From NCBI GenBank assembly GCA_017991415.1, contig JAGOQR010000001.1, positions 212,490 to 276,489 on the forward strand: a DNA stretch of 64,000 bases, written 5' to 3'. The position numbers and the translations under genes are program-made. How positions within the stretch are numbered: the stretch's first letter is position 1; every line of letters starts with the position of its first letter. Below the pieces are notes generated by a model. It was not told where the DNA came from. It searched no databases and was given only the letters and a program-made list of their open reading frames with translations. The stretch comes from Candidatus Magasanikiibacteriota bacterium (lineage in GTDB: Bacteria; Patescibacteriota; Patescibacteriia; Magasanikbacterales; GWA2-37-8). Of this stretch, positions 33,780-52,418 are shown piece after piece.

Positions 33780-33854
33780 AATTTTTTATAAGTAAATTAA
33801 CAGTAATAACTGTAGCATACTGTTGGAATTTCGCCCAGAGGTTAACAAAAAACG

Positions 33855-33916
33855 AGGCTAGGGGTAGCCGCGTTTTTTAGGTGCTCTGTTTGTGAGATAA
33901 GGTTGGAACTTTTTTG
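33855..33916. repeat. copy of the tRNA-Asn-flank-derived intergenic repeat (hairpin plus GTGCTCTGTTTGTGAGATAAGGTTGGAACTTTTTT)
   Basis: Aligns to the consensus GTGCTCCGTTTGTGGAACGATGTTAGAAnTTTT and is preceded by a GGCTAGGGGTAGCC hairpin. Lies 3' of the GLUG surface-protein gene. Confidence 0.5.
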
Positions 33917-33961
33917 GCTAAAAAAGCTCTTGTCTTTAACATTATATTCTTAAATAGAATC

Positions 33962-36955
33962 TTACCTATTTTTACTAACTATTTTTTTAGTCAGTGACCC
34001 AAAATATCCGTCTGCTGGCAATATATTATAATATTTTTGAAAATTTATAAGAGCTTTTTTTGTACCTGAACCAAAATATATTGTTTCTTGCCCTTTTGAA
34101 CCGTAACCCAATTCCTCGACGACAAAACCCTTGTTATTCAACAATACTTGTAATTGTTTTACATCCTCACCGCGCATTCCTTGTTTTAAATTTCTAGCAA
34201 ACACAAAAGTGCTTTTATCCGATTGCACAGTACAGCCTATATGCTTTCGAACAGTACCATCAAAATTACCATAACTAGCAGTATTAACTTTTTGAGTTTT
34301 TTGCATTTGCATTACAGCTTGTTTTGTTTTTACACCAAAATAATCTGATTCATTTCCAATAGAACCATGCCCTGATTGCGAAACTATAAAACCATTTTTG
34401 TTTAAATATTTTTGCAACTGCCTTACATCTTCACCCGACATACCTATCTTTAGATCACGCGTAAATAAAATTGAACATACATTATCTATATTTTCTCCAG
34501 AAACGCTCTTCTCCCTATCTAACAGGGAAGAGACTGTAATCTCAACACGATTTATCCAAATATCCGCAAACACTGCTTTAATATCTTTAATACCATCCCC
34601 GTCTAGATCAATTTCAGAACTACTACCTAAATCTAATTCAAATTGTTGCGGCTCAGACGACACTGTAAATAAAACTTTTTTATGCAGCGTATCCAAATTA
34701 TCAATCCTTAGCTCATGATCCTGCATATCATTTGTTTTACTTACCAGAACATTGAACATGGCTTGTGACCCAATATACGCAAGCAAATTAATACCACTAA
34801 AACTTACATTTCCGACTACAGATGATTCATACATGCCGATAGTTTTTTCAGTATTTGCATTTCCTACGGCCGGCGCCACTGCAACTATTGCCGTGCCAGG
34901 TGTAACCGCAGCCTGATCCTGATTTATAACTGAAGGATCGCTCATTATTGTAAAATTCCAAACGCCAGAATTAGAAACTCCCGCGTAACTATTGCCATTT
35001 ATATCATCAAAGGCAGTGGCAGCAATAAAAACATAATAGCTGGCTCCATACGCAAAGGTAGAAGATGGATTTATAACAATTTGCGCAGTGCTCGTTCCTG
35101 TTATTTGTGACGAGGTTACATTTATTGTTTCAAAAATAGAATTATCCTCTGTTTTATAAATAGTAATTGCCCCTGCCTGTGCAGTCACCGCTTCACTAAA
35201 GTTAATAACTAAATCAGCGGTTGTAGTAACGTCCAGTGCATTATCCGACGGAAACACTGAAGAAACTGTTGGGTTTGTTTCGTCCGCAACAGTAAAATTC
35301 CAATACGTTGCAGAACTAATACCAACATATGCATTTCCACTGCTATCACTAAAAGCAGTGGAACTAACAAGAACATAATAACTAGCCTCACTAGCTAAGG
35401 CACTAGAGGGATTAATAATAATAGTCGCGGAACCAGATCCAGTAACTTGCGATGAGCTCGCAACAATTGACTCAAACACGGAACCATCATTATTATAAAT
35501 AGTAATCGAACCAGTTGTTGAAGGAATTACTGCTTCCGAAAAATTCAAAACTAAATTTACCGTACTCGATGTGGTAGTGGCATTATCAACAGGAAAAAAG
35601 GAATTAAGAGATGGGCTGGTAATATCTGCAACACTCTGTGAGCGTAAATACGGATAACCGTTGTTAGTTGACCCATCAATATTCCATATAGCAGCGAAAT
35701 CCCAACCGACAAATGTCGCTTGATCTTTCATTTGAATAGTTGTTTTACCAGTAGCCCCACCTGCACTTGATGATTTACCCGAGGTCTGCGTATCCCAATA
35801 TACACTTGATGTAGTAACTCCCCCTCCAGGATTTGTTCCAAGCAAACCTCCGATTGTAGCACCGGTATTTGTTACAAAACCCACAGAATACACCCTAGCC
35901 AAATTTGTACCCCAAACTGAACCTAAAAATCCACCAGAACTATTTGCACAAGTGACGTTGCCAGTAGCATACGAATCCTGAATATATAAATATTCATTAT
36001 ACCCACCAAAACCACCACACGCAGAAGTGCCGTATACATTTCCAGTAGCATACGAGCTGGATACATGCGTACCTGAGCTTAACGCACCTCCTTGACTAAA
36101 TCCAAAAAAACCACCGTTCCAACTTCCCGACGAGGTTACATTGCCGGTAGCGTAAGAACTGTATACATACGCCTGATAAATATGGCCTACAAAACCACCC
36201 ACACCGTTGTTACCATTTGTATTTCCAGTTGCATAGGAAGAACTTACTACTGCACTGCCAGAAATAGAGCCTGCAAAACCTCCTAAACGCTGGTAACCTG
36301 TTACATTTCCCGTTGCATACGAATCGTAAATTCGACCTGCGCTTACATTCCCGAACAAACCACCCACACCTAACCCATTGCCATAAACTATAGCCGTTGA
36401 ATAAGAAGAGCTTACTGTACCACCAGAGAAAGTACCCATCAAACCTCCTGCTGAATAAGTACTAGACACAACTCCAGTAGAATAATTATTAGTACTAGTT
36501 ACTGTTCCAATCCCTACCATAATACCAGCTGAAGCTGAAGCATGAGAGCTGGTCACATTAGCATTGGTAATCCCTAAATTTTTAATTGTAGCGTTCTGCA
36601 CATACCCAAAAAGGCCGACATATTGCGTGCTGGTAGAAATAAATAAATTTGAAATGACATGTCCATTTCCGTCTAAAGTACCTTGAAATCTTAATGATAC
36701 ATTTCCAATCACTGTCCATCCAAAACCCGTATTGTACGGGCTGGTGTTTAAATCAATATCGCTTGTAAGTATAAAAAATTTACCAGATGAAGATGTTCCG
36801 TTATAATTTGCCACTTCTGCCAAATCCGTAGCATTAGCAATTTGCCAAGGGCTACCAGATGTACCACTACCCCCAGAAAAAGCATGGGCGAGCTGGGGTA
36901 CAAATAACAAAATTCCCCAGATAATTATAGTAAAGTTTAAAACGTTTTTTTTCAT
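33962..36955 (-). CDS. giant secreted surface protein with GLUG-type Gly/Ser/Thr/Tyr repeats, Ig-like domains and two C-terminal peptidoglycan-binding (PG_binding_1) domains
   Basis: 997 aa with a signal peptide. About 20 short repeats (Y/S-ATGNVTG..GG..G) like GLUG motifs. Two Ig-like modules. Two copies of a PGBD-type ...GMSGEDVRQLQKYLNKNGF / ...GMRGEDVKQLQVLLNNKGF motif at the C-terminus. Confidence 0.5.
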   Translation of the reverse strand: MKKNVLNFTIIIWGILLFVPQLAHAFSGGSGTSGSPWQIANATDLAEVANYNGTSSSGKFFILTSDIDLNTSPYNTGFGWTVIGNVSLRFQGTLDGNGHVISNLFISTSTQYVGLFGYVQNATIKNLGITNANVTSSHASASAGIMVGIGTVTSTNNYSTGVVSSTYSAGGLMGTFSGGTVSSSYSTAIVYGNGLGVGGLFGNVSAGRIYDSYATGNVTGYQRLGGFAGSISGSAVVSSSYATGNTNGNNGVGGFVGHIYQAYVYSSYATGNVTSSGSWNGGFFGFSQGGALSSGTHVSSSYATGNVYGTSACGGFGGYNEYLYIQDSYATGNVTCANSSGGFLGSVWGTNLARVYSVGFVTNTGATIGGLLGTNPGGGVTTSSVYWDTQTSGKSSSAGGATGKTTIQMKDQATFVGWDFAAIWNIDGSTNNGYPYLRSQSVADITSPSLNSFFPVDNATTTSSTVNLVLNFSEAVIPSTTGSITIYNNDGSVFESIVASSSQVTGSGSATIIINPSSALASEASYYVLVSSTAFSDSSGNAYVGISSATYWNFTVADETNPTVSSVFPSDNALDVTTTADLVINFSEAVTAQAGAITIYKTEDNSIFETINVTSSQITGTSTAQIVINPSSTFAYGASYYVFIAATAFDDINGNSYAGVSNSGVWNFTIMSDPSVINQDQAAVTPGTAIVAVAPAVGNANTEKTIGMYESSVVGNVSFSGINLLAYIGSQAMFNVLVSKTNDMQDHELRIDNLDTLHKKVLFTVSSEPQQFELDLGSSSEIDLDGDGIKDIKAVFADIWINRVEITVSSLLDREKSVSGENIDNVCSILFTRDLKIGMSGEDVRQLQKYLNKNGFIVSQSGHGSIGNESDYFGVKTKQAVMQMQKTQKVNTASYGNFDGTVRKHIGCTVQSDKSTFVFARNLKQGMRGEDVKQLQVLLNNKGFVVEELGYGSKGQETIYFGSGTKKALINFQKYYNILPADGYFGSLTKKIVSKNR

Positions 36956-37124
36956 AATATAGTACAGACAATCATTTTGACAAAAATATTATACCATATA
37001 ATATTTTTTCTTAAAAATTTAATTAACAAAAAAGCCAACGCACACCTTAAAGGTGCCTACCATAATAGATGATATTTTCTTCATTTTTTACAACCGAGCC
37101 ATATGAATAACAAAAATGGTACGT

Positions 37125-37175
37125 GCAATATCAAAAAAATGTTTGGGATGAGGCAAATTTATAACTTTTATTTTA
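37125..37175. repeat. weak/diverged copy of the intergenic repeat (TGTTTGGGATGAGGCAAATTTATAACTTTT)
   Basis: Shares the TTTG(T)GGGATGAGG core with the copy at 40001-40038. Lies 3' of the CDP-alcohol phosphatidyltransferase gene. Confidence 0.3.
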
Positions 37176-37195
37176 TTTAACATGCTTGATAGGAT

Positions 37196-37873
37196 TTAGA
37201 CCTTATTTTTATCATTCAACTGTTTTGCCACCATATCCATTTCCCATATTTTTTTCTGCTCTTTACCAATAACAATAACGAGCCCTAAAAATGAAAAGGG
37301 CAAAATAAATTGCATACTAAACGCCAGATGGGTTTTGCCCAAAAAAATTAACAATGTGTTAATAACAATAAATACAAGACGAATTTCTGTGGGCCCAATA
37401 CCAAGATGAGCAATACGAAACTTATTTGTTGCGGCCATCACTAAAAAAGAATTAATCATAAAACCGGCAACAAGAGAAAAGATAAAGAAAAATATCCACT
37501 TTGACTTATCAGGCAACAAAATCATATACCCAATCATAATGGAAGCAAGAAAAAAATAATCAAGTAAATGATCCATATAATAGCCCCATCGAATCAAGCC
37601 CGTATTCCTTGCCCGACCGACTGCGCCATCGAGCGAATCGGTGAGCCATTGCATTACAATCATTACTGAGACACCCCAAAGCCAGAAAACATCCTTCACG
37701 GCAAAAAAACTAAAAATAATGATTAGCAAACTAATCGGGATTGTAGCAAGCGTAAGATGGTATGTCTGAATTGAAGCTGGTACTTTTGGCACAGCCCAAA
37801 CGATAAATCTTTGCTCCAAGTTATGTAATAAAGATTTTCCAACTTTTTTATCTCCAGAAAATATAGCATCCAT
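37196..37873 (-). CDS. CDP-alcohol phosphatidyltransferase family protein
   Basis: 225 aa. D-S-L-D-G-x2-G-R...G...D...D motif (DSLDGAVGRARNTGLIRWGYYMDHLLD). Polytopic. Confidence 0.65.
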   Translation of the reverse strand: MDAIFSGDKKVGKSLLHNLEQRFIVWAVPKVPASIQTYHLTLATIPISLLIIIFSFFAVKDVFWLWGVSVMIVMQWLTDSLDGAVGRARNTGLIRWGYYMDHLLDYFFLASIMIGYMILLPDKSKWIFFFIFSLVAGFMINSFLVMAATNKFRIAHLGIGPTEIRLVFIVINTLLIFLGKTHLAFSMQFILPFSFLGLVIVIGKEQKKIWEMDMVAKQLNDKNKV

Positions 37874-37933
37874 AATAATTTCAATTAGTAGTGTGTGATA
37901 AATAAAAAAATTATCTTTACGTAAATCTACCGA

Positions 37934-38599
37934 TTACGAAGCTACAATTTGCCCATCAGACAAATGTATTATTCGCTCAGTCATATTACCATACTCTTGT
38001 TCGTGCGTTACCATAACAATGGTCTGCCCTTCTTTGTGTAACTCTAGAAATATTTTCATCACTATCAAACCTGTTTCACTATCCAAATTGGCGGTTGGCT
38101 CGTCGGCAAATAAAATTTTTGGCTTGTGAGCAATCGCTCTAGCAATAGAAACACGCTGCTGCTCCCCGCCAGAAAGTTGTCCGGGCACATTATCTTTTTT
38201 GTTTGCAAGCCCCATTTTTTCTAATGCTTCCATGGCAATTTTTCTAGCTTGCTTTTGGGAATATCCTTGCATGAGTAGCGGCACCATTGTATTTTCTATA
38301 GCAGTTAGTTCCGGCAAAATAGCATAATCTTGAAACACATACCCTAGCTCAATAAGCCTAAAATGCGCGCGCTGGCTAGAGGTGAGTTTATTTGTATCAA
38401 CTCCATTAAGTACAATAACGCCTTCATTTTGATGATCAAGCAAACCAAGCTGATACAAAAGCGTACTCTTACCAGCACCAGAACGACCCATAATAGAGAC
38501 GAATTCACCGTTGGCAATACTTAAATCTATTCCTCGTAAAATAGTGGTTTCTACCGTCCCATTGTAAAATTTTTTAATAATATTTTTTGCTTCAATCAT
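37934..38599 (-). CDS. ABC transporter ATP-binding protein (MacB/LolD type)
   Basis: 221 aa with GRSGAGKST, LSGGEQQRVSIARA and ILFADEPT. Confidence 0.85.
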   Translation of the reverse strand: MIEAKNIIKKFYNGTVETTILRGIDLSIANGEFVSIMGRSGAGKSTLLYQLGLLDHQNEGVIVLNGVDTNKLTSSQRAHFRLIELGYVFQDYAILPELTAIENTMVPLLMQGYSQKQARKIAMEALEKMGLANKKDNVPGQLSGGEQQRVSIARAIAHKPKILFADEPTANLDSETGLIVMKIFLELHKEGQTIVMVTHEQEYGNMTERIIHLSDGQIVAS

Positions 38600-38604
38600 A
38601 CTAT

Positions 38605-39876
38605 TTAATTTCTACCTAAAATTGAATCTAGTGTATTTTTTCTTATTACAAGCCAAGCAGGCAATAGCCCGGCCACTACAGCTGTACACATAATAACGCT
38701 TACTCGCACTGCTGTACCAACATATGGCGCCACCAGAATCCCATCAGAAAATGGAAAGTTAATTGGATGCACATCTATATACGGCTTTAAAAACCCATAT
38801 AAGATTGCAAGCCCAATGGTAATACCGAGGGCAGCATAAAATACAGAAAGCATGACGTACGAAATAATAATCGCTTTACCATCTACACCTACACCTTTAA
38901 GGATGCCGATAAATTTACGACGAGTAATGGCGTTGATAAAAATAACAATAAACAGTGTAATAGTGGCAACGATAAGACCAATACTACCAATAACATTTCC
39001 AAGCAACTCAAACGTAAAAGAAATATCTCTAAAAAATTTTCCTTGCGACTCTTCGGATGTTTGTACTGTAGCAAAGGTATCTACCGACTGGGCTAACAAC
39101 CTATTTTTAAATTCAAGCTCGGTGGTATTACCCACAGTTTTAATGGCAATTTCGTCAACATTATAATCGGGTCGGCCAGCAAACTGGCGCAGCTCCCTAT
39201 CAACCAAATAAATGCGGCGATTTACCTGATCTATTTTGCTTTTAATAATACCTTTGACTGTAAATTCTTTGGCAATACCGCCAAGGGTTATTTTTATTTT
39301 AGTACCAGGCACCACACCTTTAATAGTTTGTTCACCAGTAACATTGCCATTTAAAAATTCTTCTAACAGGCCGCTGCCGATTATAATTTGTCCATTATCA
39401 TCTGGCTCGAAATAATTACCAGCAATTAATAATGACGACAAATTGCTTAGTGAGTTTTCGTCAATAGAATTTATACCTGCCAAGATTGCTGCAGCTTGAT
39501 CGGGCAGCTCAGTTAAATTACTTCTATCTCTGTAATTTGCTTCTACAGTAGCTGCCTCTAAAATGCGGCCCGAAAAAGATTGTACACCCTCGGTAGCCTG
39601 GATAATTTTCAAAATTTGCGTAGAATTTTGAATAAACGCTTTATTAGGCAGACTTGTTAACAGGACATCACCGGAATATTGAGAAATATAGGCATTAGAA
39701 GATCCAGCAATTAAGCCAATAAGAATTCCATTTACCACAACTACATTAAGAAAGGTAAACGTCATCACCACAATGGTTAATGGCGTAGTCCAGCGGCTGC
39801 CACGTTTTAAATTAGACCAAGCCAAAAAATGACCAACACGAATAGAGATAAAAAACTTTTTTAACCAGAGAAACAT
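38605..39876 (-). CDS. ABC transporter permease, FtsX/MacB-like
   Basis: 423 aa. N-terminal TM, a large periplasmic domain and a C-terminal 3-TM FtsX domain. Confidence 0.75.
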   Translation of the reverse strand: MFLWLKKFFISIRVGHFLAWSNLKRGSRWTTPLTIVVMTFTFLNVVVVNGILIGLIAGSSNAYISQYSGDVLLTSLPNKAFIQNSTQILKIIQATEGVQSFSGRILEAATVEANYRDRSNLTELPDQAAAILAGINSIDENSLSNLSSLLIAGNYFEPDDNGQIIIGSGLLEEFLNGNVTGEQTIKGVVPGTKIKITLGGIAKEFTVKGIIKSKIDQVNRRIYLVDRELRQFAGRPDYNVDEIAIKTVGNTTELEFKNRLLAQSVDTFATVQTSEESQGKFFRDISFTFELLGNVIGSIGLIVATITLFIVIFINAITRRKFIGILKGVGVDGKAIIISYVMLSVFYAALGITIGLAILYGFLKPYIDVHPINFPFSDGILVAPYVGTAVRVSVIMCTAVVAGLLPAWLVIRKNTLDSILGRN

Positions 39877-39967
39877 ACAATATTATAGATAACAATTTTC
39901 TAGTGCTAGAATAACAAAAAAAGATGCTACTGACAACACAACAGCCGACAAAAATGGCTACTTAAAC

Positions 39968-40040
39968 AAAACAGGCACTTTCGTACCTGCTCATCCTAAA
40001 CTGCTTCATTTGTGGGATGAGGTTAGAAATTTTTTGACTA
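39968..40040. repeat. copy of the intergenic repeat (CTGCTTCATTTGTGGGATGAGGTTAGAAATTTTTTGAC)
   Basis: Lies between the ABC permease start and the EEP gene stop. Aligns to the GTGCTCCGTTTGTGGAACGATGTTAGAA consensus. Confidence 0.5.
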
Positions 40041-40068
40041 AAAACCCTCTAAATTAACCTTTGCATCA

Positions 40069-40872
40069 CTATACCTCAAATTCTAAAATAAGAGGTAGAT
40101 GGTCGGAAATTGACACATCCGGTACTGTAAGACTCTTTGCTTTAATACCAGCAGAGACAAAAGCATAGTCTGCAAACTCTTGCCAGCCGTTTGACCCAGT
40201 ACCATAATGAGGATATAATTTTTTATGAAGGCTTCCGCGTGTAGTTTTTATAGAAAATTCTTTAATTAAATTAAGAAAACCTGCTCTTTCAAACATAGCA
40301 ATACTTTCGGTATCAGGTAAAAGATTAAAATCTCCAACAATAATCTTTTCACCCGATTGTTCATTAATAAAATCAAGAATCTTTTGTGATTGAGCTAAAC
40401 GTTCTGGACTGTCTAATTTATTACCAGGCTCAGATACACCATGGACATTACAAACAGTAAGCTGCTTACCGTTAAGTAAAAACTGCACCCAATGCAAGTT
40501 AGCAGGAAAAGATTCAAAATCATTTAAAATAAATGAATTTAGACTATTACAAACAAAGAACTCACCTGTTTTATTAACAGTAATTTTTTGATTTACAAAA
40601 GTAGCCACTCCTGTATCTACCTCTTCTCGAACTATAGTAGTTTGATCAAAATGTTCCTGTGCAATAGCAAAAAAACTCTGCGATTTTTCTAATCTTTTTT
40701 TAAACTCATCAAAAAGATTAGCTTTGGCACCATTACTTATAAACGACCCTTTAGAAGTACGTAAAACTTCTTGGAAACAAAATATGTCAGTATCACTGGC
40801 ATTTGCTTTAATAAAAGCTACAAGTGGGTCAAAAATCTTACCACCGTAGGTATTTAATGAAATAATCTTCAT
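40069..40872 (-). CDS. endonuclease/exonuclease/phosphatase (EEP) family protein
   Basis: 267 aa with EEP catalytic motifs (N-terminal ...IISLNTYGG...FCFQE; C-terminal SDHLPL). Confidence 0.6.
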   Translation of the reverse strand: MKIISLNTYGGKIFDPLVAFIKANASDTDIFCFQEVLRTSKGSFISNGAKANLFDEFKKRLEKSQSFFAIAQEHFDQTTIVREEVDTGVATFVNQKITVNKTGEFFVCNSLNSFILNDFESFPANLHWVQFLLNGKQLTVCNVHGVSEPGNKLDSPERLAQSQKILDFINEQSGEKIIVGDFNLLPDTESIAMFERAGFLNLIKEFSIKTTRGSLHKKLYPHYGTGSNGWQEFADYAFVSAGIKAKSLTVPDVSISDHLPLILEFEV

Positions 40873-40962
40873 ACTTTAAAGCTCGATATTAATTACAGAT
40901 CTTATTCTATCTTCTTCGCTAATTGTAGTCAATCATGCTCCAAAACTTAGAGCTGGCACATA

Positions 40963-41026
40963 AAATAACCACTTGGTTAAGTGGTTATTTTATGTGCTCC
41001 ACGGATTATGTCTTTTCCGAACTTTT
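40963..41026. repeat. diverged copy of the intergenic repeat (AAATAACCACTTGGTTAAGTGGTTATTT hairpin plus TATGTGCTCCACGGATTATG...)
   Basis: Same two-part architecture (terminator-like hairpin followed by TATGTGCTCC...). Between the EEP and HAD genes. Confidence 0.45.
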
Positions 41027-41047
41027 CAAAATTTATCAAAAACTACT

Positions 41048-41656
41048 TTACTCTAAACTAACATCTATACACCTAAGGTAATCGCCAAAGCTAGCAGCAT
41101 CAGTATACACATAGCCACCTATACCTAACTTAATTGCGGTTTTTACATTGGCCTCTGCATCATCAATAAATATTGCTTCTTCAGGTTTTACATTTAGTTT
41201 CTGTAACGCGTGTAAATAGATATCATCCTCTGGTTTTATCATTCCTACTATAGAAGAAATTACTATTTCGTCAAATAGACTTTTAAAATCAGGATATGTA
41301 GGAAAAACCTTTCGATCAAAGAAGGTATGATTGGCATTAGAAAGTAATCCTACTTTAAAATCTTGTTTTCTAAGGTTTTGTATTATGCGTACTAAATTAT
41401 GATCTATCTCTAAATAGCTATCAATTTCATTTCTAAGATCTTCTTTAGATAGCGTTACTATATCGTAATTCAAAAAGTAATCTAACAGATTATCTTCAGA
41501 TAATTGACCAAGATCAAATTTTTTTAACGTACTTTCTAAATTTTCATCAACTAGTCCGTACTTTTCTCGTTTATCCTTGTGCCAACCACCAATAAAAGGC
41601 TTAAGAATAACACCGAAGCAATCGAATATGAAGGTGTTAATTTTTTGATTTTGCAT
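41048..41656 (-). CDS. HAD-superfamily hydrolase
   Basis: 202 aa. Motif I FIFDCFGV and motif IV-like FIDDAEANV. Confidence 0.65.
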   Translation of the reverse strand: MQNQKINTFIFDCFGVILKPFIGGWHKDKREKYGLVDENLESTLKKFDLGQLSEDNLLDYFLNYDIVTLSKEDLRNEIDSYLEIDHNLVRIIQNLRKQDFKVGLLSNANHTFFDRKVFPTYPDFKSLFDEIVISSIVGMIKPEDDIYLHALQKLNVKPEEAIFIDDAEANVKTAIKLGIGGYVYTDAASFGDYLRCIDVSLE

Positions 41657-41873
41657 ATTAAATCTGCCAGATGATTAAGTAATTATTTTCAATGATTTCC
41701 AAGCTTAAACATGAAGAATAAAAAATTACAATTCCTTCTGGATTTGCTCCCACGCTTGTTTAAATATACTCATAGATATTTATTGTTAGCACAGAATTGA
41801 TCTTATCGTCAATATTATACACCAATGTAGATTGGTGACACAAACTTATCTATCTGCACAAGTTTATAGCGCA

Positions 41874-42395
41874 CTAAACAGACCCATCAACACCCCAATT
41901 CTCACTAGCTACAAAACATTTTATATTGTTATCAATAAGAAGTTTGTAAAAACTTTCTACATGTCTTTGACCACAGATAAAGATGGCTCGGTCATCAGTC
42001 TCTTCCCTAATTTTTTCTAACCAATAAAGCTCCCTGAGCTTAAAATCCTCTTTTTCAATTTTACTTATATCATCTTGTCTATAATACTTATTACCAGGTA
42101 TGCCAAGCTTATGTATAATAGTTTTAGTATCAGCTTCAATCAACTTTCTTTCTTCTTTTCCTGGATCGCAAAATTTATGCCTGACATTCTTTTTTTTAGC
42201 CACCGTTTTTGTAAGACTAGCAGTTGCGCGCCATACCGACAACGCTTCTTCACTGAACTCCTCAGCAACTAGTGTTGCACCGAATCTGTCAATGAGCTCA
42301 CCTAAATATTTAGCGAAGCTATTATTTAAATCAGGGTCGCTGCTGTCGTTTATAAATTGGACTTTATGATTCACTCCAATCAGATACACAATCAT
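41874..42395 (-). CDS. hypothetical protein
   Basis: 173 aa, soluble, no recognisable domain. Confidence 0.3.
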   Translation of the reverse strand: MIVYLIGVNHKVQFINDSSDPDLNNSFAKYLGELIDRFGATLVAEEFSEEALSVWRATASLTKTVAKKKNVRHKFCDPGKEERKLIEADTKTIIHKLGIPGNKYYRQDDISKIEKEDFKLRELYWLEKIREETDDRAIFICGQRHVESFYKLLIDNNIKCFVASENWGVDGSV

Positions 42396-42420
42396 ACTAA
42401 TATCTAAATCTTTTTAACAA

Positions 42421-42466
42421 GTTTTGGATATGCAATCCGTTTATGGGATGATGTTCAAACTTTTTT
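42421..42466. repeat. copy of the intergenic repeat core (GATATGCAATCCGTTTATGGGATGATGTTCAAACTTTTTT)
   Basis: Abuts or overlaps the stop codon of the gene at 42469-43122. Confidence 0.5.
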
Positions 42467-42468
42467 AT

Positions 42469-43122
42469 TTACAAATCAAAACTCTTAACTACTCGTGTTG
42501 CTACATACTTTCTATTTTCCAAAATCAACTTAGATGGCTTTAATTCGGGGTTAATTCTCAGCAAATTCATTATAAGAAAATAGCCTATATTATACCCAGC
42601 AGATTGAGGGATCTTTTTTTCTTTTGAGCCGTAAAACCAATCATCATAACTATATTCTTTGAAAAAGAATTCTTTTTTTGCTTTTTTTAATACTCGCTTT
42701 AACTCTACAGCGCTTAGCCATGCAAAACTATTGGAATAACCTGCCCCTGTAATTTCTGCTTCAAAATGGCTAGCAAGACCTTCTTCAATAAACTCATCAA
42801 GTAAAACTGTCCCGTCCTTTACTTTTTGCGCATGTGTTGTGTGGTATAATTCGTGAGCCAAAGTTCTTAAGAAATTCATATACAAATGTTTCTGGAACTG
42901 TTTTGACTGTGCGTTTAAACGAATATTTATTCCATACTTACCATGTGTTTCACCACTCATCTCACCAAACTCAAGATCATGTTCAATAACAATATCAACA
43001 TCAGATACTGGTATATATTTGGAAATAACACGGATAGCTTTATGTGCTGTATCGAAAATTATTTTTTTATGAGGCTGCAACACTGGATCGTTGGTCAATA
43101 CATGGATATTTATATTTTTCAT
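42469..43122 (-). CDS. putative Zn-dependent protease (HExxH; DUF2268-like)
   Basis: 217 aa with a HELYH zinc-binding motif (LAHELYHTTHAQK). Confidence 0.45.
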   Translation of the reverse strand: MKNINIHVLTNDPVLQPHKKIIFDTAHKAIRVISKYIPVSDVDIVIEHDLEFGEMSGETHGKYGINIRLNAQSKQFQKHLYMNFLRTLAHELYHTTHAQKVKDGTVLLDEFIEEGLASHFEAEITGAGYSNSFAWLSAVELKRVLKKAKKEFFFKEYSYDDWFYGSKEKKIPQSAGYNIGYFLIMNLLRINPELKPSKLILENRKYVATRVVKSFDL

Positions 43123-43187
43123 AAGCTATTATTTTATAATAGCCAAAGAATATCATAAAACATGCTTTCTAGCTATAGCTAGAAACA

Positions 43188-43256
43188 AAACCAAAAAACA
43201 CATGGTTAGGAGGGAATGATATGTGCTCCGTTTGTGGAGCGATGTTAGAACTTGTT
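43188..43256. repeat. copy of the intergenic repeat (degenerate hairpin plus TATGTGCTCCGTTTGTGGAGCGATGTTAGAACTTGTT)
   Basis: 6 nt after the stop of the lipase-like gene. Adjacent to a perfect palindrome TTTCTAGCTATAGCTAGAAA at 43164-43184. Confidence 0.55.
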
Positions 43257-43266
43257 TAGCTAAAAT

Positions 43267-43989
43267 CTAAAATTGTCCTATATTTAAAAATTTTGTGATG
43301 GCGCTAATTACTTCATCTCCATTCATTATCCATGTATGCTCTCGTTCCACAACAAGAAAATCCTTCATATTCTCTAGTGCCGTTCTCTCTTGAGAAACTT
43401 TTTCATCATATTTTCCAGCTATTATTCCCACATCATAGTTTGGTAAAGGAAGCTTATTTACAAAGCTATTTTCATTTGTAGTCAGCTCTCTTAATGCCGG
43501 GCCCATAAAAAAATTCACAAATCGGTTATTAGCCCACTTATCAGCAGTTTCACTCCCTTTATTTGGCGGGGCAAGCATTACAACTCTGTGCAAATTTTCT
43601 ACTTCGTTAGTAGCCAGATAATATCGCACCATCACCCCTCCCATTGAATGGGTTACAAAATTTATTTTCCTGTCTTTATCTGTATATTTTTTATCCAGCT
43701 CATTAATTAAATCTTTTTTAACAAGATTTTCTATCGTATCACTCCTTGATGCATAGTTGAAATTTATTACTCTATATCCCTTTCTACTAAGAGACGTTGC
43801 AAGTTTTTGCATTGAAAAGGACGTCCTTCCAAGGCCATGTAAAAGCACTACGTACTCCCCCTTATTGTCTGTAAGCGATTTTGAAACAGCATGGGTTTCA
43901 TAAAAAAGAAAAACACCTAAAAATAGGACAGTGATTACAATTATATAAAATAAATACCGTAAAATTTTCTTCATATAAATATTCCACAT
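43267..43989 (-). CDS. alpha/beta-hydrolase (lipase/esterase-like, PGAP1-type)
   Basis: 240 aa with N-terminal TM and a nucleophile elbow THSMGG (GxSxG). Confidence 0.6.
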   Translation of the reverse strand: MWNIYMKKILRYLFYIIVITVLFLGVFLFYETHAVSKSLTDNKGEYVVLLHGLGRTSFSMQKLATSLSRKGYRVINFNYASRSDTIENLVKKDLINELDKKYTDKDRKINFVTHSMGGVMVRYYLATNEVENLHRVVMLAPPNKGSETADKWANNRFVNFFMGPALRELTTNENSFVNKLPLPNYDVGIIAGKYDEKVSQERTALENMKDFLVVEREHTWIMNGDEVISAITKFLNIGQF

Positions 43990-44050
43990 ATAACAATATC
44001 ATACATGGTAAATGAAAACAAAATCTAATTATAAAAATAAGACTTGTTTT

Positions 44051-44090
44051 ATCGCTCCGCTGTCTAGACAAAATTAGAACTGATTTTATT
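44051..44090. repeat. degenerate copy of the intergenic repeat (ATCGCTCCGCTGTCTAGACAAAATTAGAACTGATTTT)
   Basis: Shares GCTCCG...TTAGAACT with the consensus. Immediately upstream of the island C promoter. Confidence 0.35.
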
Positions 44091-44150
44091 CACAATAGAT
44101 ATGATATAAACTTTATTATCTAAAAAACGCCGCTTGCCCAACACATTACA

Positions 44151-44179
44151 TTGACAGTCCGTTCTTTTTATGCTACACT
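44151..44179 (+). promoter_or_regulatory. consensus sigma-70 promoter TTGACA-N17-TACACT
   Basis: TTGACA at 44151-44156, 17-nt spacer, TACACT at 44174-44179. About 115-nt leader. SD GGAGAG 6 nt before the ATG at 44293. Confidence 0.5.
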
Positions 44180-44292
44180 CATCGGCTATATTGGTTCAGG
44201 TTCTATATCGATGTCTGTGGCGAATACCACGGAAATCGGTAGGGGTCTGACCCCTAACTACTCGACCACACATCAACATCGGAGAGATCGTC

Positions 44293-44850
44293 ATGGTGAA
44301 TACCTGCCGCAGCTTCGGCTGCATCCTGCTGGCCCTGGTCATCCTTGGTGGCTGCGGCTCGACCGACAAGCCGACCCCAATCTGCGCCCTCATCAGCGTC
44401 AACCCCAACACGCCGATGGGTAGCCAGATCGGACCCGGCGGCACGTGGGATCCGAAGGGAGAGGCCCAGACGGTCCTAGCCTTCACAATGTTCAGGGTGG
44501 ACGGCGAGGGCTGCCAAACGGCAACTTTCACCGGTCTACCCATGAGGGTTGACCCGAACACAAGCCAGTTCGTGATCGGCCGAAACTTCAGACTCGTCAG
44601 CGAACTGAATGGCCGCCTCGTCGATATCTCGGTCGGCACAATCATGAGCGACGGGAAACTCAACGTGAAACTCCAAACGAGAGAAAATCTCGAAAAAGGC
44701 AGCCGCTACTTTCAACTGCACCTGGACACGAGCAGCGCGCAACGTGGCGACAAGCTCGCTATCATCAGTGGCGCCGTCGAGTACGAGATCAGCGGGAAGA
44801 AGTTCACTTCGTACCAGCTGTGGTACGCGCCGCCACCGATCGAATACTGA
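44293..44850 (+). CDS. lipoprotein of unknown function encoded by high-GC island C (foreign composition)
   Basis: 185 aa. Signal peptide plus lipobox LVILGG|CGS. About 60% GC with GC3-rich codons. No recognisable domain. Confidence 0.5.
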   Translation: MVNTCRSFGCILLALVILGGCGSTDKPTPICALISVNPNTPMGSQIGPGGTWDPKGEAQTVLAFTMFRVDGEGCQTATFTGLPMRVDPNTSQFVIGRNFRLVSELNGRLVDISVGTIMSDGKLNVKLQTRENLEKGSRYFQLHLDTSSAQRGDKLAIISGAVEYEISGKKFTSYQLWYAPPPIEY

Positions 44851-44870
44851 TCAGACCACAAGGTCAGATC

Positions 44871-44923
44871 AACTGAACGGCTCGGATTCGCTCACGCGAC
44901 CGAGACGGTCAGACTTCATCCGA
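44871..44923 (+). terminator. 15-bp perfect inverted repeat (CTGAACGGCTCGGAT ... ATCCGAGCCGTTCAG) 3' of the island C gene
   Basis: GC-rich stem with a 23-nt loop. No immediate T-run. The AT-rich repeat terminator follows at about 45085-45112. Confidence 0.4.
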
Positions 44924-45029
44924 GCCGTTCAGATAGTGCAGTAATTTCTTGCTACATTATCTGAGCTCGGATGTTATAAATAACATAAATTTAAAAACAA
45001 CCTTTTAACAGATGGTTGTTTTTATTTTA

Positions 45030-45145
45030 AAAAATACAAATAAATAAAATTCGAACATCCAATAAACGTCAATTCAAAAACCCGCATGGTTAGCGGGTTT
45101 TGGATTTATGCTCCGTTTGTGGAACGATGTTAGAAATTTTCTCAA
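45030..45145. repeat. full-length copy of the tRNA-Asn-flank-derived repeat (AAAACCCGCATGGTTAGCGGGTTTT hairpin plus GATTTATGCTCCGTTTGTGGAACGATGTTAGAAATTTT)
   Basis: Hairpin identical to that 3' of tRNA-Asn. The flanks also match the tRNA downstream flank (GAATTGACGTTTATTGG... vs GTATTGACCTTTACAAGG...). Confidence 0.65.
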
Positions 45146-45153
45146 CCCAATTA

Positions 45154-45963
45154 CTAAGAATGTCGCAATATCATTCTTACCTCAGGCATAGTCTTACCTG
45201 AGGGCAGCTTTGCTAAATCTTCCACTGGAGGCTCTCCTATCTTTTCAAAACCCATTTTCTCATAAATAGTAATGGCTTTATCATTGTACGTCACAACATC
45301 CAAAACAATATTCTTATCTGAACCTAACCAGTCTACACCTTGTTTTATCAGTTGTTTGCCTATGCCCCGCCCTTGATATTCTGGCGACACATAGACAGCG
45401 CCAAGCTTGTTTTCTTTATCTCCTTTTTCTAATGAGATAAAGGCAACAACTGCATTTCCATCTTTAACAACTTCAACTCTATTTTCCTGCTCCAAAAGAA
45501 ACTTCTTCCAACGCGCAAGACGTTCAGGGCCAGTAAAATCTTTTGCTAGAATTTCCTCAGTAGTTATGTCATACTCCTTATTTACGTATGTTGCAAGCCA
45601 GCCAGCTTTCTGCACTTCCATAATACCTGGGATATCATCAAAGGCTGCTTCTTGTATCTGGAAATTTCTTTTATTTCTCAATCGCTTGTATGCGAGAACT
45701 ATTAGATTTAGCAGAAGAAAATAGAAAAGTGTGTTACCGAGAAATGGTAATAAATAGAAATGATCTTCTGGAGGACCCAACATACCTACTATTGATGAAC
45801 AACAATTATCCCTTAGAAATATGAACGGAAAACCGCCTTGAGGTATAGAACTATCACCTTGATATGAAGTTTCGTGAGTAAATGAAACGTAGGCTATAAT
45901 TAGAGAGACTACAATTAAACCAAATTGTTTAAAGATTTTTTTCATATTTAAGCATTTACACAC
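45154..45963 (-). CDS. GNAT-family acetyltransferase with N-terminal membrane segment
   Basis: 269 aa. C-terminal GNAT fold (QGRGIGKQLIKQGVDWL...). Confidence 0.6.
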   Translation of the reverse strand: MCKCLNMKKIFKQFGLIVVSLIIAYVSFTHETSYQGDSSIPQGGFPFIFLRDNCCSSIVGMLGPPEDHFYLLPFLGNTLFYFLLLNLIVLAYKRLRNKRNFQIQEAAFDDIPGIMEVQKAGWLATYVNKEYDITTEEILAKDFTGPERLARWKKFLLEQENRVEVVKDGNAVVAFISLEKGDKENKLGAVYVSPEYQGRGIGKQLIKQGVDWLGSDKNIVLDVVTYNDKAITIYEKMGFEKIGEPPVEDLAKLPSGKTMPEVRMILRHS

Positions 45964-45964
45964 T

Positions 45965-46354
45965 TTACCTTGGATACTTTTCTACCAATTCTAAGGTATA
46001 CACTTTTGCCCTAATCGTTTTCTGTTGTGCCTGGAATGCTTTTACCAACCGGTGAACACCATCAATAACCAACCATTTGTCATTTTTGTTTAGTAGAAGA
46101 ATAGGAAATTGCAGGTCTGCCTGCTTAACTCGTTCTTGGTGGATACTACTCCCTTCAACTTTATTAATAACATCCCAAGGAGTTAAGTTCCAATCGTCAG
46201 TGCCGTCTTTTTCCCAAAGCGGTAGATCAAAATTCCAGATTAGTTTATCTATGTCAAAATCTACGATTGGCAAATCTAGCTCTCGTAATTTTACGGTATC
46301 ACAATAAATTTCATAACCAGCGTCAGTGAGGATTTTATATTTTTCATTTATCAT
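45965..46354 (-). CDS. hypothetical protein
   Basis: About 129 aa. The track ORF begins with a non-ATG codon; the first ATG is MINEKYKI. No domain recognised. Confidence 0.3.
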   Translation of the reverse strand: MINEKYKILTDAGYEIYCDTVKLRELDLPIVDFDIDKLIWNFDLPLWEKDGTDDWNLTPWDVINKVEGSSIHQERVKQADLQFPILLLNKNDKWLVIDGVHRLVKAFQAQQKTIRAKVYTLELVEKYPR

Positions 46355-46372
46355 ACCATTTAATCTTATCAA

Positions 46373-46470
46373 AGGTTCGAGCGTCTCGTAAAGGTCAATT
46401 CAAAAACCCGCATGAATAGCGGGTTTTAGATATGTGCTCCGTTTATGGAACGATGTTAAGACTTGTTGAA
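46373..46470. repeat. full-length copy of the tRNA-Asn-flank-derived repeat (AAAACCCGCATGAATAGCGGGTTTT hairpin plus GATATGTGCTCCGTTTATGGAACGATGTTAAGACTTGTT)
   Basis: Near-identical to the tRNA-Asn 3' flank over about 100 nt, including GAATTGACCTTTACGAGACGCTCGAACCTTTGAT vs GTATTGACCTTTACAAGGCGTTAGAACCTTTTGT. Confidence 0.65.
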
Positions 46471-46491
46471 TTGTTAAAAACAAGATAAAAA

Positions 46492-47391
46492 TTAAATATT
46501 TGTAGCAGAAAGCACTGTCTTGGTCTTGTACTTATCAAATACAGTTGCGAATAGTATCGTAAGCATAATAATTATCCCATTAGACACCAGGGCAAAATGT
46601 TGATTTATTAAAAGCAATCCAATGACTATAATAGTAAGTAGCAGGGCGTTTAACGGAGAAAGCTGAGATCTTTCTTCATACCTGGAAGCAGACACTTCTT
46701 TTTCTTCCTCATAACGTTTACGTGCAGCAACTTGGACTTCTTTTTCGCTCATTCCTTTTACATTTATATTATAGAATCGAAATGGAGAGAAATGATATAA
46801 AAAGGAAGCATATAAAGCAGCATGTCCGAAGGCCATACCTAAGGCTAAAAAAGATAGTGGTACGAGCGTGGATATGTTACCCAAAAAATTACCATATACC
46901 TCAACATAATTAAAATTGATGACTGTAGTAGTAATAATCAGAATTAAATACCAAATGATAAACAACAATTCTTGCCATCGCCTAGGCGGAACGGGAATAA
47001 AGGCATTAATAATAGTAAAACAAGAAAAGATCACAAAGAGAGCTAACAACCCAGGAGGCAAATTACTTTGTATGACAAAATAAATAGCAACTAAATTAAC
47101 TACCAATAAAGATGTTTCATTTAAAGAAAAAACAACTTTTTTTCTAAAAAAGAACATGATAAAAAAAGGCAATATGGCAAGCCAAAAAAGGAGAGCGGAA
47201 ACGAAAAAAGTTCCCGGTTGCTGATCTGGAAATAAAAAAATAGTGGCTGGCAATGAAATAAATGAGAGTGCTATAGCTTTCAGAAGTCCGGACAGACTCT
47301 TTCTAAAATCTTCAAAAAAATTAATTGATAAAAAAACTTGGGAAAATACCCCTAGGATAAATACACTGATAAACAGCAGGTTAGGCTCCAT
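46492..47391 (-). CDS. hypothetical polytopic membrane protein
   Basis: 299 aa, 8 or more TM, C-terminal charged region. Confidence 0.35.
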   Translation of the reverse strand: MEPNLLFISVFILGVFSQVFLSINFFEDFRKSLSGLLKAIALSFISLPATIFLFPDQQPGTFFVSALLFWLAILPFFIMFFFRKKVVFSLNETSLLVVNLVAIYFVIQSNLPPGLLALFVIFSCFTIINAFIPVPPRRWQELLFIIWYLILIITTTVINFNYVEVYGNFLGNISTLVPLSFLALGMAFGHAALYASFLYHFSPFRFYNINVKGMSEKEVQVAARKRYEEEKEVSASRYEERSQLSPLNALLLTIIVIGLLLINQHFALVSNGIIIMLTILFATVFDKYKTKTVLSATNI

Positions 47392-47400
47392 ATCTAATTT

Positions 47401-47511
47401 GTTTGTTAGCTACATCGCAATAGTATCATACTAACCCAAAATACAAAAGGTTCTAACGCCTTGTAAAGGTCAATACAAAAACCCGCATGGTTAGCGGGTT
47501 TTTGATATGAG
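47401..47511. repeat. master copy of the repeat: 3' flank of tRNA-Asn (tRNA end GGGAGCTCATATC plus AAAACCCGCATGGTTAGCGGGTTTTT terminator plus TTGACCTTTACAAGGCGTTAGAACC)
   Basis: The dispersed repeats reproduce the last bases of the tRNA acceptor arm (GGAGC-aCATATC) and about 100 nt of its downstream flank. Confidence 0.6.
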
Positions 47512-47583
47512 CTCCCGGGGTCAGATTCGAACTGACGACCAATTGGTTAACAGCCAACTGCGCTACCGCTGCGCTACCCGGGA
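47512..47583 (-). tRNA. tRNA-Asn (anticodon GTT)
   Basis: Minus-strand cloverleaf. Acceptor TCCCGGG/CCCGGGA, D-arm GCGC-AGCGGTA-GCGC, anticodon loop CTGTTAA, T-arm GTCAG-TTCGAAT-CTGAC. CCA not encoded. Confidence 0.8.
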
Positions 47584-49795: not shown

Positions 49796-49804
49796 ATATA
49801 AAAG

Positions 49805-50128
49805 TTATAACGATTGAATTTTGTGTAAAATAACTTGCATTTTATTATGATCTTCGGCAGCCATTTTTTCTTTATACAGAGATACTGCCTCCTTTTCAAA
49901 CTGCATCTTTTCATTTAAAATTTGATTATATAATGTCGGATTTTGATTAATAAGTCGCACGGTCACCTCTTCTTGCCAATCAATTAATTCAACAAGCATT
50001 CCTTTTAACTGACCAAGCTTCTCTGCTGAGAGATTAATAATTTTAACAAGCATTCTCTCCTTAAAAGCTGGGTCAAAAACCAAGATATCTTCTACCATGT
50101 TAAAAATTTCTTTTCTAAGCTCCTCCAT
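49805..50128 (-). CDS. hypothetical small helical protein
   Basis: 107 aa, helical/coiled-coil. Confidence 0.3.
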   Translation of the reverse strand: MEELRKEIFNMVEDILVFDPAFKERMLVKIINLSAEKLGQLKGMLVELIDWQEEVTVRLINQNPTLYNQILNEKMQFEKEAVSLYKEKMAAEDHNKMQVILHKIQSL

Positions 50129-50139
50129 ACGATTATATA

Positions 50140-51474: not shown

Positions 51475-51481
51475 ATTATAA

Positions 51482-52180
51482 TTAATCTTTAAATCTTTTA
51501 TTGTGAGCAAACATAAAACCCATAGTTTTATCAAATTTTGAAGGAAAAACTTGAACACCAAAACCACTGGCACGTAATTTTTCTTCTATCTCTTTACTTT
51601 TTTCTCTACTTTCATGGTACTCCAAAATTATATAATTGACCACGGACAAATCTTTCTCGCTCATACCATCAAAGACTTCATACTCGCCTCCTTCGATATC
51701 CATTTTTAATAAAGAAACTTTCTTAATTTTATTTTGTTTAAGTAAATCAGCAAAAGAAACTGCCCTTACTTGCACCGAACCTGGGATACGATCAAAATCT
51801 AGCCCTAATCTATGATTATGACTATCTGGTGCAACCACTAATTGCCTAGAACTAGTTTCCAAAGCCAGAGCCGCCTCAATAATCTCTACCTTGGAAATTT
51901 TATTTTCTTTGAGGTGTTTCTGCAGTGCTTTTATATTTTTTGGTTCTGGCTCTATAGCAAAAATTTTAACTCGGCTATTAAGAGAATGAGCATGCATCAC
52001 AAAAAATCCAGCATGAGCACCAACATCAACTATTGGATCTGTGGCATTTTGTATAACCTCATCAGCTCTACGGTATTCGTGAAGCTTAAAAATTTCGTTA
52101 AAAACACTTTGATCTGCCTCATCTCGGAGGTTAAACTGCCATTTATTCCCTTTTACAATAAGCTCTTCTATATTTTTCAT
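51482..52180 (-). CDS. FkbM-family SAM-dependent methyltransferase
   Basis: 232 aa with VVDVGAHAGFF (motif I) and an FkbM-type C-terminus. Confidence 0.6.
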   Translation of the reverse strand: MKNIEELIVKGNKWQFNLRDEADQSVFNEIFKLHEYRRADEVIQNATDPIVDVGAHAGFFVMHAHSLNSRVKIFAIEPEPKNIKALQKHLKENKISKVEIIEAALALETSSRQLVVAPDSHNHRLGLDFDRIPGSVQVRAVSFADLLKQNKIKKVSLLKMDIEGGEYEVFDGMSEKDLSVVNYIILEYHESREKSKEIEEKLRASGFGVQVFPSKFDKTMGFMFAHNKRFKD

Positions 52181-52228: not shown

Positions 52229-52257
52229 TTGACAAAAACTCAGTTAAATGATATGTC
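52229..52257 (+). promoter_or_regulatory. candidate promoter TTGACA-N17-(TG-n-)TATGTC for a small RNA
   Basis: Perfect -35 and 17-nt spacer. Extended -10 TGATATGTC, with the C at the last -10 position weakening it. Confidence 0.35.
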
Positions 52258-52261
52258 TGTA

Positions 52262-52418
52262 TTAGACCCTCTCTTTGAAGTAAGAGCACGCCAACCGCCT
52301 ACGTCTCGACGTAGATGCAACTTGCACAGAAATACTACCAAACACCTCCCCGGGTGTGCGGAGACATTCCAGCAGGTACGGAAGCGTGCGATTCTTCATT
52401 GAGAGGGTCGCTTTTTTT
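52262..52418 (+). ncRNA. candidate structured small RNA (about 150 nt, GC-rich, closed by a long-range stem GACCCTCTC/GAGAGGGTC plus T7 terminator)
   Basis: Local GC about 55% in an AT-rich intergenic region. 5' GACCCTCTCttt-GAAG pairs with CTTC-att-GAGAGGGTC followed by TTTTTTT. Internal helices AGAGCACGC/GCGTGCgaTCT and CTACGTC/GACGTAG. Identity unknown. An SRP-like GGTACGGAAGC motif is present but the fit is not convincing. Confidence 0.3.

Follow-up and report, generated by a model that had tools for sequence, protein, structure and literature searches.

Within a 64-kb stretch (64,000 nucleotides) of the genome of a Candidatus Magasanikiibacteriota bacterium (GenBank contig JAGOQR010000001.1), called the window below, there is an array of gene cassettes anchored at a tRNA-Asn gene, and one slot of the array is taken up by a compact GC-rich unit encoding a predicted lipoprotein. 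We put the probability at about 60% that this lipoprotein cassette was imported, has spread horizontally and is now ameliorating, having moved as a self-expressed cassette of the integron-like array. The window as a whole has a GC content of 37%, and just three large islands within it exceed 48% GC, lying at 14861-15340 (A), 23081-23980 (B) and 44141-45000 (C). Island C is the lipoprotein unit, which spans 44140-45025 (~885 bp) and appears from its predicted signals to be complete from promoter to terminator. The open reading frame (ORF) has a GC content of 0.59, in agreement with the ~60% of an earlier account drawn from the letters alone (the sequence-only reading), with values at the three codon positions (GC1/2/3) of 0.53/0.46/0.78. 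The GC3 of the flanking cassette genes is 0.28-0.30. The unit is inverted, lying on the plus strand between array repeats within a minus-strand array.

The coordinates of the unit and its surroundings are collected in Table 1. Related loci and contigs carry the prefix L, and the window locus (W) is the reference in pairwise comparisons. The sigma-70-type promoter scores 10/12 and is the sole plus-strand promoter-like site in 43900-45250, and its −35 and −10 boxes are kept in all orthologous loci. Transcription would start ~7 nt past the −10 box, near position 44186. The sequence-only reading had listed this promoter, the GGAGAG Shine-Dalgarno sequence and the 185-amino-acid lipoprotein ORF facing against its neighbors, and all are present. 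In the 5′ untranslated region (UTR) there is a long hairpin of 25 pairs, with 89% of cells paired and four compensatory pairs (5/500 shuffles), which folds in five of the six orthologues; the sixth, L055, takes an alternative minimum-free-energy fold. A leader peptide (VANTTEIGRGLTP) was considered for this region and rejected, because a 1-nt indel in L005 breaks the frame, and this rules out a coding explanation of the leader.

Downstream of the ORF there are four copies of a ~15-nt motif (order + − − +), and the region folds into three hairpins (H1 to H3) and a terminator, with the same fold in all seven sequences. The hairpins comprise 48 pairs, with 92% of cells paired and 12 compensatory pairs (1/500 shuffles). 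The 15-bp perfect inverted repeat of the sequence-only reading is real, but its span is 44873-44932 and not 44871-44923, with arms at 44873-44887 and 44918-44932. As single-stranded DNA it folds with −22 kcal/mol (z = −6.3). The first arm pairs internally within H2 and the second with a downstream copy in H3; direct pairing of the two arms (A:A′) is possible and less supported (two compensatory pairs, 81/500 shuffles). The idea that this inverted repeat is a GC-rich attC site was rejected, as the GTT/AAC cores are not kept in L005 and L012, and it is further disfavored by the better pairing of the first arm within H2, with covariation.

The intrinsic terminator of the unit folds in 7/7 orthologous 3′ regions and is conserved in both alignments A3 and A4. 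It is symmetric, and is therefore probably bidirectional. What had been described as an AT-rich repeat terminator is present but proves to be two things, the terminator of the unit itself and the next array repeat with its own hairpin. Conservation among the loci begins ~10 nt upstream of the −35 box, continues through the terminator and is lost beyond. With both gathering and permissive thresholds Rfam returned only tRNAs and chance sub-threshold matches, and no family for the UTR structures. The conserved 5′ and 3′ structures are two new candidate cis-acting RNA elements.

The upstream boundary is less simple. A degenerate repeat had been placed at 44051-44090, directly followed by the promoter. 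The repeat copy is real (44050-44090, an R″-L″ half), but it ends ~60 nt upstream of the −35 box. Over 75 nt, the segment at 44054-44139 is 88% identical to the end of the third GC-rich island of L012, and the degenerate repeat is therefore part of an older cassette, against which the lipoprotein unit now lies. Thus the slot is not bounded by a clean repeat on the promoter-proximal side in the window. On the minus strand, transcription of the hydrolase gene downstream could resume from a weak promoter-like site (44110-44083).

Table 1. Positions, strands and properties of the features discussed in the text
Feature	Position in window	Strand	Description
Sigma-70-type promoter	44151..44179	+	TTGACA (44151-44156), 17 nt, TACACT (44174-44179), TG extended −10
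5′ UTR long imperfect hairpin	44193..44252	+	near predicted 5′ end of transcript
Shine-Dalgarno GGAGAG	44281..44286	+	6 nt ahead of ATG; read from sequence
Lipoprotein ORF	44293..44850	+	185 amino acids; signal peptide and lipobox, MVNTCRSFGCILLALVILGG followed by C
Structured 3′ UTR	44848..44973	+	H1 44848-44871 (including stop codon), H2 44873-44912, H3 44917-44973
Intrinsic terminator of unit	44993..45023	+	AAAAACAACC...GGTTGTTTTT; AT-rich; folds in all seven orthologous 3′ regions
Truncated tail of older GC-type cassette	44054..44139	−	3′ arm of its terminator, spacer, R″-L″ half-repeat (44050-44090)
Array repeat R3	45047..45140	−	tRNA-proximal boundary of lipoprotein slot; hairpin 45077-45101
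Array repeat R4	43161..43257	−	behind alpha/beta-hydrolase cassette gene 43267-43989
Cassette array	33846..47583	−	~15 mostly single-gene units with ~95-nt repeats between them, anchored at tRNA-Asn
Repeat copies (nhmmer)	33846-33914, 40002-40034, 40956-41000, 42415-42465		in array
Repeat copies (nhmmer), continued	43161-43257, 45046-45141, 46372-46468, 47447-47515		in array
tRNA-Asn (GTT)	47511..47583	−	ARAGORN and Rfam
Island A	14700-15330	+	between TerC and Na/Ca-exchanger genes; TTGACA-17-TATAGT promoter
Island B	23030-24060, ORF 23206-23847	−	between MgtC and NAGPA genes; GC3 0.90

The ORF behaves as a coding sequence. Substitutions peak at third positions, with differences at codon positions 1/2/3 of 0.25/0.21/0.43 between W and L005, and indels are in-frame. 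The ratio of nonsynonymous to synonymous substitution rates (dN/dS) is 0.32-0.40, compared with 0.04-0.22 in host genes. Taking a lipobox to be an N-terminal signal peptide ending in [LVI][ASTVIG][GAS]C, as read from sequence, we find ILGGC in W, L001, L004 and L046, LMAGC in L005, and a less canonical form in L055. The product would thus be exported and lipid-anchored in the membrane.

Relatives were sought among 5.8 billion sequences by word-indexed search and among 1.84 billion representatives by profile search, and the sequence set with family members was drawn from NCBI, Logan, ENA and JGI assemblies. The family has only six members: W, L001/L002 (86% identity), L003/L004 with L046 (~71%), L005/L006 (56%) and L055. 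The lipoprotein of the window shows 100% identity to a protein from a Candidatus Magasanikbacteria metagenome-assembled genome. The contigs of the family members have 36-40% GC, and each of the lipoprotein genes 54-63%. The profile search of representatives yielded a single further true relative (P0005). Four weaker matches (P0006-P0009) are giant repeat proteins and were discarded, pairwise BLAST showing no real similarity. A pattern scan of metagenomes returned 19 matches to the 3′ module, of which L046 alone is real; the others are chance matches in GC-rich contigs. No relatives were found in scans of viral contigs (IMG/VR) for the lipoprotein and the array repeat. The actinobacterial origin that had been put forward for checking gained no support, since neither of the two large searches returned an actinobacterial or other outside homologue.

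The distribution of the gene is patchy and its position varies. In every locus the unit is inverted with respect to the array, and its neighbors differ in each. It lies ~2.7 kb from tRNA-Asn in W, ~4.6 kb in L005 and ~7.3 kb in L046, and is beside a tRNA-Asn 3′ fragment in L004. Full array repeats flank it on both sides in L046 and L004. Relatives of the neighboring DUF6938 gene come from metagenome-assembled genomes titled Magasanikbacteria or Patescibacteria, and in 29 species-level relatives retrieved through DUF6938 the lipoprotein gene is absent within 10 kb beyond that gene. In L012 the same place is occupied by other GC-rich cassettes. The sequence-only reading had asked whether other strains carry a different gene or none; the opposite outcome, the same gene with the same GC content at the same position in all relatives, is not what we find.

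The divergence of the gene is low for its genomes. The synonymous divergence (dS) of the lipoprotein gene from W is 0.22 (L001), 0.45 (L003) and 0.85 (L005), while host genes of the same pairs give 0.58-0.97, 2.0-2.9 and 1.5-1.9, so that the lipoprotein values are 2-6 times lower. When synonymous third-position changes were polarized with strict outgroups, 13 were GC to AT and none AT to GC, and on the L004/L046 branch the count was 16 to 0. We read the 13:0 bias as that of a foreign gene that is ameliorating. GC3 among the orthologues runs 0.84, 0.80, 0.78, 0.75, 0.70 and 0.68. Given the AT-biased regime of the host and a host dS of at least 2, a resident neutral gene should long since have lost its GC. 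The proposal of a gene of foreign composition in a cassette slot is thus upheld by the full repeats in L046 and L004, the patchiness, the low dS and the decay of GC to AT. It is qualified by the lack of a donor homologue in either search, so that the donor is deduced and not seen, and by the fact that five other related lineages, likewise AT-rich, share this GC-rich gene together with its promoter and UTRs.

The array in which the unit lies has a repeat behind each minus-strand gene at 33.9-47.4 kb. Its genes (GNAT, HAD, alpha/beta hydrolase, DUF2268, EEP, ABC/FtsX, glyoxalase, DUF1801 and DUF1761) are typical accessory functions. Repeat families D1-D3 can be distinguished, nhmmer finds eight copies across 33846-47515, and the repeat core has three matches in the window against none in 100 shuffles. 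The first repeat is composed of the 3′ end of tRNA-Asn, its terminator hairpin and a downstream L′-R′-like segment. In alignment A7 the T-arm and the acceptor 3′ end of the tRNA match the R″-L″ half of the repeats, and the rest of the repeat corresponds to the tRNA's own terminator hairpin and the segment downstream (GACCTTTAC..GTTAGAAC). The array-repeat halves in the window have diverged from the tRNA-Asn sequence and are 5 nt longer. In R3 we find a TTCGAA core, the central terminator hairpin and a GCTCCGTTTGTGGAACGATGTTAGAA half.

The length between tRNA-Asn and a conserved gene encoding a 346-amino-acid acyltransferase is ~15 kb in the window, compared with 3.4 kb of different content in L012. 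The array, for which the role of a landing pad had been suggested, is real and variable, but GC-rich units also lie outside it. In L004 (1040-1110) the lipoprotein cassette is flanked by a perfect 17-nt fragment of the tRNA-Asn 3′ end (AATCTGACCCCGGGAGC), after which comes another GC-rich stretch; the fragment suggests recombination within or beside the T-loop.

On the other side of tRNA-Asn (47645-51573) there are genes encoding proteins of 716 and 107 amino acids and the 477-amino-acid DUF6938 protein, none with known function. The DUF6938 protein is well conserved across Magasanikbacteria (47-86% identity), and among the same genomes the 716-amino-acid (28-77%) and 107-amino-acid (35-63%) proteins diverge very fast.

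These observations are consistent with the following sequence of events. The cassette would have originated in a more GC-rich genome, most plausibly that of another, higher-GC Patescibacterium, and its high G+C would be a relic and not an equilibrium held in the present host. It would have entered and spread among AT-rich Magasanikbacteria after their divergence, and would now be drifting towards AT. Since the unit faces against the array it carries its own promoter, 5′ hairpin, Shine-Dalgarno sequence, 3′ hairpins and symmetric terminator. The 5′ and 3′ hairpins probably stabilize the mRNA, and the elements of the unit probably insulate it against antisense transcription of the array, with the symmetric terminator and the hairpin of the neighboring repeat blocking convergent array transcription. 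Movement would presumably depend on a recombinase, encoded elsewhere, that acts site-specifically at the tRNA-Asn-like repeats.

A number of results weigh against importation. No homologue of the lipoprotein was found in any GC-rich genome in either search, and no recombinase was found in the window ORFs or in the related loci scanned. Only one in four of the array repeats tested has paired outer arms. In the W/L001 clade the ratio of GC-to-AT to AT-to-GC changes is just 5:4, the counts are small, and parsimony polarization in a GC-rich gene is itself biased towards GC to AT. The lipoprotein and the host give the same ranking by divergence, and between W and L001 the non-coding parts of the unit are 76-84% identical, which does not exceed the 72-85% of host intergenic regions. 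The rank order and the similar non-coding identity are compatible with vertical descent accompanied by constraint at synonymous sites. The product, a predicted membrane-anchored lipoprotein, is an ORFan, without a match in Pfam, PHROGs, NCBIfam, PADLOC or PDB sequences. An AlphaFold2 model calculated on a four-sequence alignment is unusable (pLDDT 40, pTM 0.34), so that the all-beta fold that it predicts is of low reliability.

The rank order and the non-coding identity also count in favor of a reading in which the gene is native to Magasanikbacteria and vertically inherited, its high G+C (GC3 0.7-0.84) being kept by selection on the transcript, for example for a very stable structured mRNA or for avoidance of AU-directed RNases, with array shuffling and loss giving the patchiness. 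We regard this as unlikely, yet it is the strongest of the alternatives. The family is confined to this clade, the low dS could itself come from synonymous constraint, and the covariation in the UTRs shows RNA under selection. Moreover, the GC-rich stretch of island C coincides with the predicted transcribed region, and island B, at one syntenic site in two genomes, has kept a GC3 of 0.90-0.95. Against a native gene stand the strong excess of GC-to-AT changes, the spread of GC3 among orthologues and the absence of the gene from the equivalent locus in 29 related species. Two further observations against it come from other GC-rich units: a single 3′ module lies behind unrelated GC-rich ORFs, pointing to a shared mobile scaffold, and in higher-GC relatives another family of GC-rich cassettes is native in composition.

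The first of these emerges from comparison of the units, which have a recurrent architecture. A TTGACA promoter and a long leader precede an ORF with a GC3 of 0.72-0.90, and a 3′ hairpin module of several arms and a terminator follow it. Behind the lipoprotein gene of L005, the 3′ module (181 nt) has 91% identity to the one that follows an unrelated ORF for a membrane protein in L012, and the homology begins exactly at the stop codon. In L012 (12681-16170) three GC-rich self-expressed units in both orientations, together with one AT-rich cassette of 95 amino acids, fill the interval from tRNA-Asn to the acyltransferase gene. Islands A and B lie outside the array, and the array is thus not the sole landing site. 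In island B a TTGACA-17-TATATT promoter and a ~170-nt leader precede an ORFan with only three relatives in the databases, followed by a three-arm 3′ hairpin module and terminator. Between W and L001 the first 505 nt of this island (promoter, leader and start of the ORF) are 85% identical, as are the last ~260 nt (end of the ORF and 3′ module), and the non-coding promoter/leader and 3′ module parts alone reach 94-96%. The middle ~270 nt cannot be aligned, and dN/dS is 1.5. A copy with a 33%-identical ORF occurs at a different place in L007, and in L003 the 3′ module also adjoins a different small gene. Island A contains two short ORFs that overlap, one of 73 amino acids and one for a ~75-amino-acid protein with two transmembrane segments (GC3 0.76), together with a small hairpin and, at the terminator, a long one; neither ORF has a family match in libraries that include PHROGs, NCBIfam and PADLOC. 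The ORFs of GC-rich units that we tested are all ORFans with respect to Pfam, PHROGs, NCBIfam and PADLOC.

The second observation concerns a gene for a 108-amino-acid protein in L005, a further GC-rich unit. Its homologue P0015 (60% identity) is found in L056 and L057, directly downstream of a tRNA-Asn gene that lies ~200 nt upstream, on Patescibacteria-like contigs of 51% GC. There the gene has a GC content of 0.54 and a GC3 of 0.59, matching its genome. A pool of higher-GC donors therefore exists for this class of unit, and the tRNA-Asn hotspot seems to be conserved across lineages of different G+C. Some Patescibacteria contigs found through DUF6938 (such as L029 and L031) have 58-61% GC overall, so high-GC lineages exist in the wider group and could donate GC-rich cassettes.

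One other GC-rich sequence in the window deserves mention. At 52230-52480, between the Methyltransf_21 and GSDH genes, a TTGACA-type promoter is followed by a ~190-nt GC-rich stretch with a terminator at its end. The stretch has a closed multi-branch fold (−68 kcal/mol for 208 nt) and is a candidate small RNA. Neither Rfam, even with E ≤ 1, nor blastn against the related loci gave a match for it, although several relatives carry a GC-rich patch at the same position.

If the cassette was imported and moved with the array, it might still be asked whether we are dealing with a genuine sedentary integron of the chromosome, or with a cluster of attC sites lacking an integrase (CALIN), the repeats being attC sites at which a distant integron integrase inserted the unit. 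We consider this improbable. The attC site of integrons has the form R″(RYYYAAC)-L″...L′-R′(GTTRRRY), with conserved AAC/GTT triplets, and folds into a hairpin with extrahelical bases. The repeat consensus, GTTCTAAC-...-hairpin-...-GTTAGAAC, does have an attC-like look, with inverse cores around imperfect inner repeats and one extra base on the L″ arm, and its ~95-nt length is within the range of attC sites. Most cassettes are single co-oriented ORFs of the types expected (GNAT, glyoxalase, HAD, hydrolases and DUFs), and their content varies between relatives. Inverted cassettes with their own promoters are also known in chromosomal integrons. But individual R′ boxes read GCTCGAA, GGTAGAA or TTTAGAA, the GTT/AAC triplets being lost in several copies. 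In DNA minimum-free-energy folds the outer arms are paired only in R3 among the four copies tested, and RNAalifold recovers just the central terminator hairpin. The array starts in the 3′ flank of a tRNA gene and not at an attI site, and with a terminator in each repeat a single Pc promoter could hardly express it. Finally, no Phage_integrase or other recombinase family was found among the 68 window ORFs scanned against Pfam, and the Pfam annotations precomputed for L001, L003 and L005 contain none either. With no linked integrase found, and with repeats that are attC-like in part, we describe the locus as an integron-like, tRNA-Asn-anchored array and do not file it as an integron. The array repeats that had been recognized from the letters are real, but they resemble a tRNA-Asn 3′ end and are not demonstrably attC sites.

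It is very improbable that the unit is an artefact (a chimeric mis-assembly, contamination, or a structured RNA with a chance ORF), for while long chance ORFs in several frames do arise in GC-rich sequence, and this one is an ORFan with a poor structural model, the unit recurs, with the same AT-rich elements (promoter, terminator and flanking array repeats), in at least six independent assemblies from four sources (NCBI, Logan, ENA and JGI), has codon periodicity, in-frame indels, dN/dS below 1 and a conserved lipobox, and matches no Rfam family.

To our knowledge, little is known of how genes are acquired and exchanged by Candidate Phyla Radiation (CPR) bacteria, with their tiny genomes and presumed dependence on hosts. 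Apart from resistome surveys, our literature searches yielded no account of integrons or GC islands in Magasanikbacteria or Patescibacteria, and such systems are essentially undescribed in this phylum. The locus is a tRNA-anchored cassette hotspot that offers a concrete case for gene flow across different base compositions. It also bears on the source of integron-like cassettes, as the origin of this one would still be visible in its un-ameliorated G+C. The self-expressed surface or membrane ORFans form a recognizable class, and may mediate interactions with hosts or phages. A bolder interpretation, which we offer tentatively, is that AT-rich Magasanikbacteria, and perhaps Patescibacteria more widely, harbor an undescribed cassette system without a linked integrase, whose repeats mimic the 3′ end of tRNA-Asn together with its terminator. 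GC-rich ORFan units might be trafficked in it on a conserved scaffold of promoter, leader and 3′ module, with ORFs that are swapped or hypervariable; the occurrence of one 3′ module behind unrelated ORFs, and the mosaic structure of island B with dN/dS above 1, would fit this. If true, lineages of very different G+C would be linked by a 'moron/cassette' exchange network specific to CPR, and the significance of the locus would be greater should the tRNA-anchored array and the scaffolded GC-rich cassettes prove to be a distinct exchange system.

Island C can be compared with three known kinds of system. As in an integron or CALIN, the array consists of co-oriented single-ORF units separated by ~95-nt imperfect palindromic repeats with inverse cores of the GTTCTAAC/GTTAGAAC type, its content differs between relatives, its functions are cassette-typical, and one unit is inverted, self-expressed and unlike the host in composition. 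Unlike an integron, it yielded no intI, attI or Pc in the sequence scanned, begins at the 3′ end of tRNA-Asn, and has repeats that resemble a tRNA end plus terminator, with poorly paired outer arms, unconserved GTT/AAC triplets and a terminator in every copy; similar GC-rich units are also found outside it.

The unit also resembles phage morons. These consist of a promoter, an ORF and a terminator that form an autonomous unit of deviant composition, and the product is often a lipoprotein, for example lambda Bor. Like morons, the unit is compact, with a predicted sigma-70 promoter and intrinsic terminator, a single lipoprotein ORF and deviant G+C. It differs in lying in a chromosomal cassette array, with housekeeping or cassette-type genes around it and no prophage context, and in its elaborate conserved UTR structures; neither the lipoprotein nor eight other ORFs of GC-rich units have a PHROG family, and IMG/VR contigs contained neither relatives of the lipoprotein nor the array repeat.

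Lastly, the array resembles tRNA-linked islands in lying immediately downstream of a tRNA gene and having repeats that resemble the tRNA 3′ end; the 17-nt tRNA-Asn fragment of L004 flanks the cassette, and the hotspot seems to be conserved, with another GC-rich cassette family beside tRNA-Asn in distant relatives. It differs from them in that the units are ~1-kb single genes without an integrase, the repeats run past the tRNA into the terminator and a downstream inverted segment, and those in the window have diverged from the tRNA, with a 5-nt difference in length. Island C thus has something of an integron-like cassette, of a moron-like unit and of a tRNA-linked islet.

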